This document shows, one piece after another, positions 22,300 to 26,200 of a DNA stretch of 64,000 bases. Origin of the DNA: Patescibacteria group bacterium (GTDB lineage: Bacteria; Patescibacteriota; Patescibacteriia; Patescibacteriales; GWC2-42-12); NCBI GenBank assembly GCA_028707005.1, contig JAQTVB010000002.1, positions 121 through 64,120 on the forward strand. Direction: 5' to 3'. Position 1 is the stretch's first letter; the number at the start of each line of letters is the position of its first letter. Below the pieces are notes generated by a model. The model searched no databases. It was not told the origin of the DNA and was given only the letters and a program-made list of their open reading frames with translations. The translations under genes and the position numbers were made by a program.

Positions 22300-22308
22300 T
22301 CACATAAT

Positions 22309-22484
22309 GTCATTGCGAGGAGCGTAGCGACGAAGCAATCTCTGGTAAGAAAAAAGACAATAAAAAGAAAATGCCGTAGATTGATGAATTAAATTTTGTT
22401 TAAAGAGATTAATTATTAAAATTAATTAGTATTTCTAACCAGAGATTGCTTCGTCGCCTTGAGTACAAGGCTTCTCGCAATGAC
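22309..22484. repeat. GTCATTGCGAG...CTCGCAATGAC palindromic element (copy b, loop inverted relative to copy a)
   Basis: The arm gtcattgcgaggagcgtagcgacgaagcaatctctggt pairs with accagagattgcttcgtcgcc...ctcgcaatgac. The reverse complement of its loop shares aatctctttaa and ggcatttc with the loop of copy a. Confidence 0.8.
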
Positions 22485-22500
22485 AATAACAATTTATTTT

Positions 22501-22845
22501 ATGATCTTAAACATCAAAGCCACGAATTTGGAATTGACGCCAAGACTTAAGGATTATGTGCAGCTAAAAATGGACATGCTGGAAAAATTTTTGGGCAATT
22601 TAAAAATTATTAGCGCGCATTTTGAAGTGGAGCGGACCACCAAGCATCATCTAAAGGGAGAAATTTACCGCGCTGAAGCCAATTTGGTGATAAACGGCGA
22701 TTTATTGCGCGTGGAAAAAACCGAAAAAGATGTCTTTAAGGCCGTGGACAAAGTAAAGGATCATCTGGATCTGGTGATAAAAAAATACAAGGATAAAATA
22801 ATCGGGCGTAAAAAGAAAAAAGAAAAGTTGGGGGCGATGATGTAA
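22501..22845 (+). CDS. hpf: ribosome hibernation promoting factor / RaiA family
   Basis: MILNIKATNLELTPRLKDYV... is a typical HPF N-terminus. The ORF-track start at 22459 runs through the repeat element, so I preferred the ATG at 22501. Confidence 0.85.
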   Translation: MILNIKATNLELTPRLKDYVQLKMDMLEKFLGNLKIISAHFEVERTTKHHLKGEIYRAEANLVINGDLLRVEKTEKDVFKAVDKVKDHLDLVIKKYKDKIIGRKKKKEKLGAMM

Positions 22846-22850
22846 AAAAA

Positions 22851-23118
22851 GAGCCTCTTTCAGCAGTGTTTGCTGATTGAGGCTTGAGTTTGGGTGTTTC
22901 GCCCTTCTTTACCGGCAGTAGACGCCGGTATGCGTTTTGGGGGTTAATAAGGTAACCCGTACCTTTCTTTGCAGGAGCGCCACACCGCTCCGGGAAACCA
23001 CTCGGGAGTCAGGACGGTCCAACCGTCACAGTAGTCTTCCATGAGCGACCCATAACGAGCAATGGCGCATGCATACTTGAGAACCGTAGTAAGTTTTCGC
23101 ATAGCATAGTTCGAAGGA
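22851..23118 (-). ncRNA. candidate structured RNA of unknown class (alternatively a 52-codon ORF at 22944-23102) in the G+C-rich hpf-secA spacer
   Basis: The region is visibly more G+C-rich than its flanks. It has several perfect local hairpins (GGAGCG/CGCTCC, GACGG/CCGTC, ACCGGC/GCCGGT). On the minus strand there is a TCGACT-17-TACAAT promoter-like pair near 23125-23155 and a T7-tailed terminator at 22852-22884. Confidence 0.3.
22852..22884. terminator. bidirectional hairpin terminator (strong T7 run on the minus strand)
   Basis: AGCCTC...GAGGCT outer stem with a CAGCA/TGCTG inner stem. An A7 run at 22844-22850 gives a U-tail for a minus-strand transcript. Confidence 0.6.
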
Positions 23119-23243
23119 ACCAGTAATATTGTATCATGTTTATTAGCATTAGTCGATATTCTTGAACTTGATTTTTTACCCGATTAATTATATGATTAAT
23201 CTGTTTTTATAATTATTCAGCACGCTCTTGCGTGTCTTTTAAT

Positions 23244-26200
23244 ATGAGTCTATTAGATAAAATTTTTGGCGATCCCAATGAAAAGATGGTAAAAATTTTG
23301 CGTCCGGTAGTGGAGCAAATCAATGCTTTGGAAAAAAAGTACCAGGTCATGAGCGACGAAGAGTTAAGGGTGCAGACCGCGGAGTTTAGAAAGAGATTGG
23401 GAGTGGAAAATACAATCCCCCAAACCCCCTTTATCAAGGGGGCAAATTTCGATGAAATTGAGAAAAAGTTAAAAGAAATTTTGCCGGAAGCGTTTGCCGT
23501 GGTGCGGGAAGCGGCTAAAAGAGTTTTAGGGCAAAGGCATTATGACGTCCAGCTAATGGGCGGCATGGTACTGCATCATGGGCAGATCGCGGAAATGAGA
23601 ACCGGCGAAGGAAAAACTTTAGTGGCGACTTTGCCGGCTTATTTGAACGCTTTGCCCGGCCGGGGCGTGCATGTGATTACGGTTAACGATTATCTGGCCA
23701 AGCGCGACGCCGAGTGGATGGGGCGCGTATACAGTTTTCTTGGATTGAGCGTTGGATGTATAACCCACGAGCAGGCGTTTAAATATAATTCTGTCCGGAA
23801 TGACCAAATCCCAATAACCAATAACCAAACAAATCCCAATGACCAAAATTCAAATGACCAAAATAACCTCCTTAATCCCTCCGCCTCGGCAAGCCGAAGG
23901 CGAGACGGGCCTTTGCAAGGAGGACAAGACGGTAAAATCCCCCTTACCCCCTTTGTCAAGGGGGAACTAACAGAAGTGCCGCGCAAAGAAGCCTATAATT
24001 GCGACGTGCTTTATGGCACGAACAATGAGTACGGTTTTGATTATCTAAGGGATAATATGGCGCCGGATCTTAAATCAATGGTGCAACGGAGCCTGAATTA
24101 TGCCATCGTTGATGAAGTTGACTCAATTTTGATTGATGAAGCGCGCACGCCTTTGATTATCAGTTCGCCGGCCGAGGAATCAACCGATAAATATTTTAAA
24201 TTTGCCGAATTGGTACAACGGCTGGTGGAGAATGAAGATTATAATGTTGACGAGAAAATGCGCGCCGCCACTTTAAGCGAAACCGGCATCGCCAAGATGG
24301 AAAAAATGATGGGCGTGGATAATATTTATACGAGCGGCGGCATTGCCGAAGTGCACCATATTGAGCAGGCTTTAAAAGCGCGGGTGCTTTTCAAGCGCGA
24401 TCGCGATTACGTGGTGAAGGACGGCGAAATTATCATCGTTGACGAATTCACCGGCCGGTTGATGTATGGCCGGCGCTATAGCGAGGGCCTGCATCAGGCG
24501 ATTGAAGCCAAGGAGCGAGTGGAGGTTCAGCGCGAATCGCTTACTTTAGCCACCATCACTTTCCAAAATTATTTCAGAATTTATAAAAAACTCGCGGGCA
24601 TGACCGGAACGGCCGTGACCGAAGCCGAAGAATTTTCCAAAATCTACAAATTGGAAACTGTGGTGATTCCCACAAATCGGCCGATGGCGAGAGAAGATTT
24701 GAATGACTTGATTTATCGGACCGAGATGGGAAAATTCAAAGCCGTAGTGGCCGAAGTCAAGCGCCGCCATGCTATCGGCCAGCCGGTTTTGACAGGCACG
24801 ATTTCCATAGAAAAGAATGAAACATTAGCGGAAATGCTTGCTAGAGAGGGAATTGTGCCGCAGGTTCTGAACGCCAAGCATCATGAGCAAGAAGCGCAAA
24901 TTATTTCTCAAGCCGGCAAGTTGGGAGCGGTGACGATCGCCACTAACATGGCCGGCCGCGGCGTAGATATTATGCTCGGGGGAGTGCCGCCAGATAAATT
25001 TCCGCCCAAGGCGGATCAGCCTCGGGCTGAAAAAATTAGCGAGGCTGAAAAGACAAAAGGTGAGGAATACGAAAAGTGGCGCAAGGAGTATGAAAAAGTC
25101 AAATCTTTGGGCGGTTTGCATATTATCGGCACGGAGCGGCATGAAGCCAGGCGCATTGATAATCAGCTTCGCGGCCGCGCCGGCCGCCAGGGCGATCCGG
25201 GGTCGTCCCAGTTTTATGTTTCCATGGAAGACGACTTGATGCGTATTTTCGGCGGCGACAGAATGAAAAATTTAATGGTTACCTTAAGAGTGCCTGAAGA
25301 TATGCCGATTGAAAATGGCCTGGTTTCGCGTTCCATTGAATCGGCGCAGACCAAGGTGGAAGGCAATAACTTTGATATCAGAAAGCACTTGGTGGAATAT
25401 GACGACGTGATCAATAAGCATCGAGAAACGATTTATCGGAAGCGGCGGGAAATTTTGGAACTGGCGGAAACTTCTGTCATCCCGGGCTTGACCCGGGATC
25501 CAGGTGTGCGTGACACGGAGATGGATTCCGGCTCGGAGGCCGGAATGACAAATAAGGGCGCGTCGGTGGAGGGTAAGAAAACTCTGTCTACCATAATCTT
25601 AGAAATGATCTTGAATGAAATTGAACAGGCGGTGATTTTTCATACGGCCGCCGATAGTTCTAAGGACTGGAATGTTAACGAGATTTTTCAGGTCATGTCC
25701 ACGATTTTTGTGGCGGATCAAAAATTAAAAGAAGAGCTCGCGGCTTTTGTTAAAGACGGCGACCCTTCGGCTGGCTCGGGGCAGGTCAAGCTGGATAAAG
25801 TAAAAGTAAGGACAAAAATCATTGAACACCTGGAAAAATTAATAAGAATCAATTATGAAAAAATCACCAAGCTGGCCGGCGAGGCTGGCATAAATTGGCG
25901 GCAGGTGGAAAAGGCGGTTTTGATCAGATCGATTGATATGCTCTGGATAGAGCATCTGGAAGCCATGGACCACATGCGCCACGGCATCGGCTTAAGAGGC
26001 TATGGCCAGCGCGATCCATTGATTGAGTATAAAAAAGAAGCCTATATTCTGTTTAATGAATTGAATAATTTAATTCAAAAACAAGTGGCATATTCAATTT
26101 TCAAGGTGGCTGATTTGGGCAATTTCGCCGTGCCGACCCTGAAGACGCGGCCGCAGAATTATATCGCGCCGGCAAAAACCATGGAAAAAAATAGCGGTTC

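Follow-up and report, generated by a model that had tools for sequence, protein, structure and literature searches.

A strain-specific insertion in a variable slot between hpf and secA of a Falkowbacteria-like genome

Results

The hpf-secA locus

The DNA studied here is a 64-kb stretch (hereafter the window) from a Falkowbacteria-like member of the Patescibacteria (CPR); the closest relatives of its hpf gene are from Falkowbacteria and Parcubacteria MAGs. The gene order around the region of interest is frr, rseP, hpf, island, secA, with hpf and secA both on the plus strand (Table 1). The island, which occupies the spacer between hpf and secA, has a G+C content of 0.545 (positions 22900-23099), compared to 0.29-0.40 in the flanking intergenic DNA and in hpf. 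An earlier description of this DNA, made without database searches and referred to below as the sequence-only reading, had called the spacer G+C-richer than everything around it; this is correct for hpf and the intergenic flanks; the nearby genes, however, reach a G+C content of 0.55-0.575. A further G+C-rich patch of about 160 nt is located at 63400-63560 of the window, inside A/T-rich intergenic DNA.

The Logan assembly of run SRR22315508 contains 1,110 nt that are identical to the window and cover both junctions of the island. Because this independent assembly is identical across both junctions, the sequence is not an assembly chimera.

Table 1. Features of the hpf-secA region. Positions are those of the window.
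Feature	Position	Strand	Remarks
hpf, raiA-family ribosome hibernation factor	22501-22845	+	PF02482; protein identical to NCBI MDD4900574.1
Whole insertion, ~315 bp relative to empty spacers	22848-23164		Single gap in global alignment to L002 and L004
Putative intrinsic terminator	22844-22884	-	Two-tier hairpin 22851-22884, then U7 (22850-22844)
Small hairpin GGGUG-UUU-CGCCC, then UUCUUUAC	22892-22904	+	G-U pair on plus strand only; terminator-like for hpf
Perfect 7-bp hairpin TACCGGC/GCCGGTA, then UGCGUUUUGG (plus strand)	22910-22930	+	Terminator-like for hpf
Perfect 6-bp hairpin GGGTTA/TAACCC	22941-22958		Spans the ORF52 stop codon; overlapping alternative hairpin 22949-22965
Perfect 6-bp hairpin GGAGCG/CGCTCC	22974-22991		Inside ORF52
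Perfect 6-bp hairpin GACGGT/ACCGTC	23013-23027		Inside ORF52
ORF52, 52 codons + stop: MRKLTTVLKYACAIARYGSLMEDYCDGWTVLTPEWFPGAVWRSCKERYGLPY	22944-23102	-	From the list of open reading frames
Predicted transcript, ~276 nt	22846-23121	-	From ~7 nt past the -10 to the U-tract
Promoter-like site	23128-23156	-	-35 TCGACT (23156-23151), 17-nt spacer, -10 TACAAT (23133-23128)
secA promoter and leader, conserved	23168-23243	+	TTGATT-17-TATGAT; secA ATG at 23244
ACACGC/GCGTGT hairpin in secA leader	23220-23235	+	Just before the start codon

Two sets of palindromic elements were observed next to the island. On the secA side, a 7-bp palindrome (GATTAAT/ATTAATC) lies over the secA -10 element (23182-23201); the stem in the secA leader is invariant, its loop is variable, and a T-run lies ahead of the start codon. 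Equivalents of this promoter and leader are present in loci L002-L004, L022, L025, L036, and L068-L072. Together, these elements are a candidate operator and leader attenuator for secA. On the other side of hpf, a MITE-like nested inverted repeat is located between rseP and hpf (22305-22488), with arms at 22305-22323/22470-22488 and 22327-22352/22432-22457. The motif GTCATTGCGAGGAGC occurs in three copies in the window, compared to an expected 0.07, and palindromic motifs related to the rseP-hpf repeat were found in spacers of L002, L005, and L030.

The island is a discrete insertion in a variable slot

We compared the island to about 75 related hpf loci (from 16 species-representative genomes, 48 metagenome contigs, and 9 contigs retrieved via near-identical hpf proteins). 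Searches with blastn, nhmmer, and tblastx found the island in none of these loci. The nearest sampled relative shares 85% identity in hpf, and its contig ends at hpf; exact and near-exact look-ups of hpf found nothing closer than this, apart from the identical Logan contig.

In L002 and L004 the hpf stop codon is followed directly by the conserved secA promoter and leader. The flanks of these two loci align well with the window, and the gap has the hpf stop (TAAAA) on one side and ACTTGATTTTTT, in the conserved secA promoter, on the other. The inserted segment includes the minus-strand promoter-like site, the body, and the terminator. On its right, the variable slot is bounded in every close relative by the secA promoter and leader.

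The slot is empty in L002, L004, L025, L026/28, L068, and L073; the other loci contain different cargos. On the minus strand, L003/L024 carry a 72-aa ORF with two TM segments, L071 a 97-aa ORF, and L027 a 90-aa ORF with a Shine-Dalgarno sequence. Plus-strand ORFs of 109 aa and 75 aa are found in L022/L065 and L072, respectively. A glyoxalase (PF00903, 6.7e-13) occupies the slot in L036, L069, and L074, and an ORF of 279 aa occupies it in L023/29/31. The cargo of L030 includes an apparent, rve-like transposase reading frame, recognized by eye only, and that of L005 consists of palindromic repeats.

The island DNA had no match in the rest of the 64-kb window, in phages, or in plasmids. Metagenome and viral contigs gave no match in peptide-pattern scans, which catch close or frame-preserving relatives only, and three exact 20-mers of the island had no match in viral contigs. 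The alignment scores between the interior of the insert and the cargos of L003, L005, L022, L027, and L030 were at the level of shuffled sequences; the cargo of L071 was compared by blastn and tblastx only, and did not match the cargo of the window. The island is a discrete, strain-specific insertion in a hypervariable cargo slot between hpf and secA, and it is known from one CPR genome.

These properties are shared with the strain-specific orphan small genes and sRNAs that occupy intergenic hot spots. Like them, the island is a discrete indel with conserved core genes on both sides; its cargo differs from one relative to the next, lacks homologs, and comes with its own putative promoter and terminator, and its composition is atypical (G+C 0.53-0.55 versus 0.41). 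The slot differs from such hot spots in that parts of the unit are homologous while the cargo is not: the terminator is homologous in the window, L071, and L003, and promoter and terminator are both homologous around differing cargo in L027, L030, and L005. Homologous ends around differing cargo point to something more ordered than random insertion.

The latter three loci constitute a second type of slot, located on the minus strand at L027:2400-2850, L030:3120-3350, and L005:3020-3160. They have in common a minus-strand promoter (TTGACA-17-TATGGT) and a terminator (AAACCGCCAGG..CTGGCGGTTTTTC), with different cargo between the two. The unit in L027 carries its 90-aa ORF, that in L005 contains nothing and retains half a terminator only, and that in L030 contains a G+C-rich segment of about 130 nt with no ORF; the 173-nt unit in L030 folds with a z-score of -3.55. 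Given this group of loci, the slot may swap its cargo in an ordered way.

A mobile element or integron cassette is a very unlikely source of the insert

In favour of a mobile element or its scar, the island is a discrete indel, and its slot takes up foreign DNA, for instance the apparent transposase frame in L030. Under this explanation the island would be a MITE, the end of an IS element, or an integron-like cassette with an attC-like hairpin, and its hairpins would be recombination signals acting as DNA. The stems are indeed perfect palindromes, MITE-like palindromic repeats are present in L005 and L002, and the conserved hairpin at the 3' end of different cargos recalls attC. However, the hallmarks of a MITE or IS element (terminal inverted repeats, a target-site duplication, and multiple copies) were not found within the 64-kb window: the best pair of inverted repeats is 78% identical over 18 nt and is not convincing, neither junction shows a target duplication, and the island is single-copy. 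No recombinase ORF is located within about 5 kb, the phage, plasmid, and viral searches described above found no match, and the shared hairpin has a U7 tail and behaves as an ordinary terminator.

Integron cassettes offer a formal parallel, since there, too, different small cargos at a single chromosomal position each have a homologous, imperfect hairpin behind them. The hpf-secA slot differs from an integron in that there is no integrase nearby (within about 5 kb), no R/L core-site consensus recognizable by eye, and no cassette array. Furthermore, each slot unit has its own putative promoter, and the hairpin carries a U7 tail of the terminator type. We assign the mobile-element explanation only a slim probability.

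A probable terminator cluster with one conserved hairpin at the hpf end

The sequence-only reading had placed hairpins at the minus-strand 3' end of the island, with the last one followed by U7. These hairpins are present, and the last is strong: the segment 22844-22884 folds at -18.4 kcal/mol (z -4.5). Its outer stem, GAGCCUC/GAGGCUC (about 6-7 bp), is separated by a 2x2 internal loop from an inner stem of 6 bp, UCAGCA/UGCUGA, and the U7 tract overlaps the hpf stop codon.

A homologous hairpin with the same architecture, followed by U7, is located directly after hpf in the window, in L071, and in L003/L024. The hairpins of the window, L071, and L003 all fold at about -18 kcal/mol, with z-scores of -3.1 to -4.9. 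Between the window and L071 there are two compensatory changes of inner-stem pairs (A-U to G-C and C-G to A-U), in a comparison of three sequences. The element thus combines the G+C-rich stem-loop and U-run of an intrinsic terminator with a structure that was kept in evolution. In L071 and L003/L024 the homologous hairpin ends different small minus-strand genes; for this reason we regard it as the probable working terminator of a unit that is convergent on hpf. Judged by these comparisons, the putative terminator is the sole conserved part of the insert, and the sole part whose function has evolutionary support.

Two additional hairpins, at 22892-22904 and 22910-22930, are followed by T-rich tails when read on the plus strand, where they most plausibly serve as terminators for hpf. 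Read on the minus strand, the second of these would be part of the 3' untranslated portion of the unit. If both hairpins terminate hpf, a cluster of convergent terminators makes up the left third of the island. The segment 22844-22930 resembles other intrinsic terminators at convergent gene ends, in that it consists of G+C-rich stem-loops with U-rich tails on either strand, and the main hairpin with its U7 is conserved with compensatory changes. In contrast to such terminators, which would account for about 90 of the 270 nt, the island includes a body of about 190 nt that has no terminator function.

A plausible minus-strand promoter

The promoter-like site lies back to back with the secA promoter. 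A TG at -15/-14 (23136-23135) makes it an extended -10 promoter, and it matches the consensus at 9 of 12 positions. The TCGACT-17-TACAAT pair had been pointed out before and is there, TG included; however, such matches are no more common in the region than in shuffled sequences (3 found versus 2.5 expected), a frequency that chance accounts for. We consider a minus-strand promoter at 23156-23128 plausible. The earlier description of the anatomy was correct in that a promoter-like site and a terminator frame a minus-strand unit, and in that this unit converges on hpf and is not located upstream of it. From these elements we infer that the promoter fires and that the transcript ends at the U-tract.

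No known RNA family matches the island

In an Rfam 15 cmscan search of the whole window, no family matched the island or any other segment at the gathering threshold. With the cut-off relaxed to E<=10, both strands of the 601-nt segment 22700-23300 gave chance-level matches to snoRNA and sRNA models only, and none to the raiA motif, whose model we take to be part of Rfam. The same search against 20 sister loci found nothing. ARAGORN detected no tmRNA, and neither the covariance models nor ARAGORN, where applicable, gave a match for SRP RNA, RNase P RNA, 6S RNA, or tmRNA, in agreement with the failure to recognize hallmarks of these RNAs by eye.

A tRNA-like gene elsewhere in the window provides a check on the search. 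At 62556-62643, ARAGORN predicts an 87-nt tRNA-Ile (GAT); the best Rfam model for 62556-62641 is tRNA-Sec, with 44.1 bits against a gathering score of 47. The variable arm of this RNA is long, an unusual property for a tRNA with an Ile anticodon. That Rfam lists no tRNA at the gathering threshold is due to clan competition, and the detection of this gene just under the threshold indicates that the Rfam search works on the window.

The raiA motif deserves separate consideration, as it had been proposed as a lead on account of the adjacent hpf/raiA-family gene. This RNA class reportedly goes back to Weinberg in 2017. It comprises about 200 nt with stems P1-P6(8), two pseudoknots, and 51 highly conserved positions, it is found in Bacillota and Actinomycetota, and it is typically located upstream of raiA and downstream of comFC (PMC10861870). 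These RNAs often adjoin raiA; their neighbours also include secA and prfB (PMC10861870). The island likewise lies next to an hpf/raiA-family gene with secA nearby, measures 200-280 nt, is rich in hairpins, and could be an independent transcript. It differs from the raiA motif in having no covariance-model match, in its host, which belongs to the Patescibacteria, in being downstream of and convergent on hpf (with rseP, not comFC, upstream of hpf), and in not being conserved even among the close relatives represented by the approximately 75 hpf loci.

The possibility of a raiA-motif RNA, or of a different known RNA with a housekeeping or regulatory role (SRP RNA, RNase P RNA, 6S RNA, tmRNA, or a riboswitch) that diverged in CPR, thus has only the neighbourhood in its favour, namely the proximity of raiA and secA (PMC10861870). 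Against it stand the Rfam and ARAGORN results, the size, structure, taxonomic range, and position of the raiA motif (PMC10861870), none of which the island shares in full, and the consideration that an essential RNA would not vanish from its position without a trace in relatives. We give this possibility next to no credence. The raiA motif and the known structured-RNA families were rejected as candidates because of the missing Rfam match and the lack of conservation in relatives. The broader suggestion of a structured RNA of a new kind also lost ground: as far as the data allow, the approximately 75 hpf loci show neither conservation nor covariation of the island, the terminator being the only exception. 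The sequence-only reading had itself named this pattern as one that would refute its proposal; among the relatives sampled here, the nearest has an hpf identity of 85%.

Hairpin density and folding

The impression of a hairpin-dense island was borne out by counting. In 280 nt we found six perfect stems of at least 6 bp (loop 3-9), compared to 0.33 in dinucleotide shuffles, and none of 2000 shuffles reached six. No 280-nt window slid along the 64 kb has a higher count, and 0.2% of these windows reach six; among windows with a G+C content of at least 0.5, the density of perfect hairpins is the maximum of the 64 kb. The whole segment folds with z-scores of -3.3 on the minus strand and -3.0 on the plus strand, while the body alone (22935-23122, 188 nt) has a z-score of -1.13 on both strands. 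Since the signal drops to this value for the body, its source is the group of three hairpins next to hpf. Even so, the body by itself keeps four perfect hairpins, versus 0.22 expected (P<0.002). In the minus-strand MFE structure, the GGAGCG/CGCTCC hairpin competes with long-range pairing to 23047-23068. The six counted hairpins are strand-symmetric Watson-Crick stems, and the sole hairpin with a G-U pair (22892-22904) favours the plus strand.

A promoter-like site and a strong, conserved terminator that together frame a transcript of sRNA size would suit a functional small RNA. The unit might encode a new, lineage-restricted RNA of about 276 nt, possibly with a dual function that includes ORF52, and the short hairpins would then be its functional structure. 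The exceptional hairpin density is consistent with this explanation, as is the unit in the same slot of L030, which has no ORF, is rich in G+C, measures about 173 nt, and is more stable than shuffled sequences. However, the body of the window's unit is no more stable than its shuffles, the counted stems do not distinguish the strands, and the only one that does points to the plus strand. In addition, the sequence is conserved in none of the approximately 75 relatives and has no similarity to Rfam families, and no target or partner can be proposed for it. A functional small RNA is an unlikely explanation in our estimation.

The 52-codon reading frame

The spacer contains no ORF of 60 codons or more, and the shorter ORF52 had been recognized from the sequence as a possible gene. 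The ORF begins about 19 nt past the predicted transcription start and occupies 159 of the approximately 276 nt of the predicted transcript, and gene callers called it on the Logan contig. A lineage-specific gene for a protein of 52 aa with many Cys, Trp, and Tyr residues would thus be in a suitable position; with its own promoter and a conserved terminator, it would be comparable to the small minus-strand genes of relatives. The loci that share the terminator contain minus-strand ORFs of 72 aa and 97 aa, and the G+C content of their codon positions is coding-like. The ORF had also been described as having no visible Shine-Dalgarno sequence. None is present, but the observation is uninformative: the absence of this motif means nothing for ORF52 because only 2 of the 38 gene starts in the window carry one, and it is no objection to translation in this genome. 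The 20 nt before these starts are 77% A+T.

The searches for homologs had no success. A word-indexed search of 5.8 billion proteins returned ORF52 itself only, and Pfam, PHROGs, and PADLOC contained nothing. A phmmer search against 1.84 billion representatives gave five extra matches (P0002-P0006, E-values down to 5e-14), all of them tandem-repeat proteins. Each contains 5-16 matching stretches; since the E-values sum many such stretches of about 27 bits, we consider the matches artefacts, and no credible homolog was found in this database. As ORF52 has no homolog, a dN/dS analysis is impossible.

We trained a codon model on 40 genes of the window and used its log-odds score. The score of ORF52, -0.034, falls in the lowest 2.8% of 52-codon chunks of real genes and lies inside the distribution of out-of-frame ORFs, 17% of which score as high or higher; the corresponding likelihood ratio is about 0.3. 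It is the lowest score of all cargo ORFs (the cargo ORF of L071 scores 0.27). The G+C contents of the three codon positions are 0.50, 0.52, and 0.58; the signature of GC1 exceeding GC2 is missing, although it is present in every sister cargo ORF. The start context (-7.9) is below those of all 33 native starts and at the median of random ATGs, but two of the sister ORFs have start contexts of comparably low quality. The AlphaFold2 model, built from the single sequence, reached a pLDDT of 52 and is uninformative. These codon, G+C, and start-context data lean against the translation of ORF52. They do not settle the question, since a native codon model would give a low score to a foreign gene, and the cargo has a foreign look.

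Three further considerations weigh against a protein: W, C, and Y account for 21% of the residues; the perfect hairpins are enriched in the body, most of which is ORF52; and by our estimate, chance could plausibly yield an ORF of 52 codons in 280 nt with a G+C content of 50%. Homology, codon usage, codon-position G+C content, and structure prediction lend no support to a 52-codon gene. We regard a genuine protein gene as possible but doubtful.

We also considered the decay of a longer gene. One minus-strand frame has a single stop in 93 codons; by our estimate, such a frame is not significant when all six are considered, and it would extend across the terminator. This candidate was rejected.

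Discussion

The reading that we favour, and hold with about equal measures of confidence and doubt, is that a strain-specific segment of about 315 bp was inserted in a hypervariable slot, where it forms a self-contained minus-strand unit. The body of about 190 nt would be an orphan that is more probably non-coding or decaying than translated, and the unit would not belong to a conserved structured-RNA family. Transcription would begin at the extended -10 promoter, which is divergent from the secA promoter, and would yield an RNA of about 276 nt that ends at the two-tier hairpin and U7 abutting the hpf stop codon. The terminator would keep antisense transcription out of hpf, while the hairpins at 22892-22930 would stop plus-strand transcription arriving from hpf. 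The remaining 190 nt or so would be orphan cargo of foreign-looking composition, present as a non-coding or decaying transcript.

Some observations fit this favoured reading less well. The enrichment of hairpins in the body (4 versus 0.22) is not explained by plain decaying DNA, and could reflect selection on RNA or DNA structure. ORF52 could be translated after all, by analogy with the sister units, which end in the same terminator and contain plausible protein genes.

A more far-reaching explanation connects the variable cargos with their conserved ends. Falkowbacteria-like CPR genomes would contain an ordered expression slot, defined by a conserved terminator (in the window, L071, and L003) or by a conserved promoter and terminator (in L027, L030, and L005), in which recombination of some kind swaps one small foreign cargo for another. 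The cargo of the window would then be a new lineage-specific RNA, structured or with a dual function, and its enrichment in hairpins would be the result of selection. As a whole we judge this explanation to be quite improbable.

The island is neither a raiA-motif RNA nor a conserved structured RNA; it is one more strain-specific orphan insert. If the slot were ordered, there would be a cargo-swapping expression slot beside a ribosome-hibernation gene in reduced CPR genomes, and this slot would provide a modest yet tangible starting point for understanding how such genomes gain and lose accessory small genes and RNAs.
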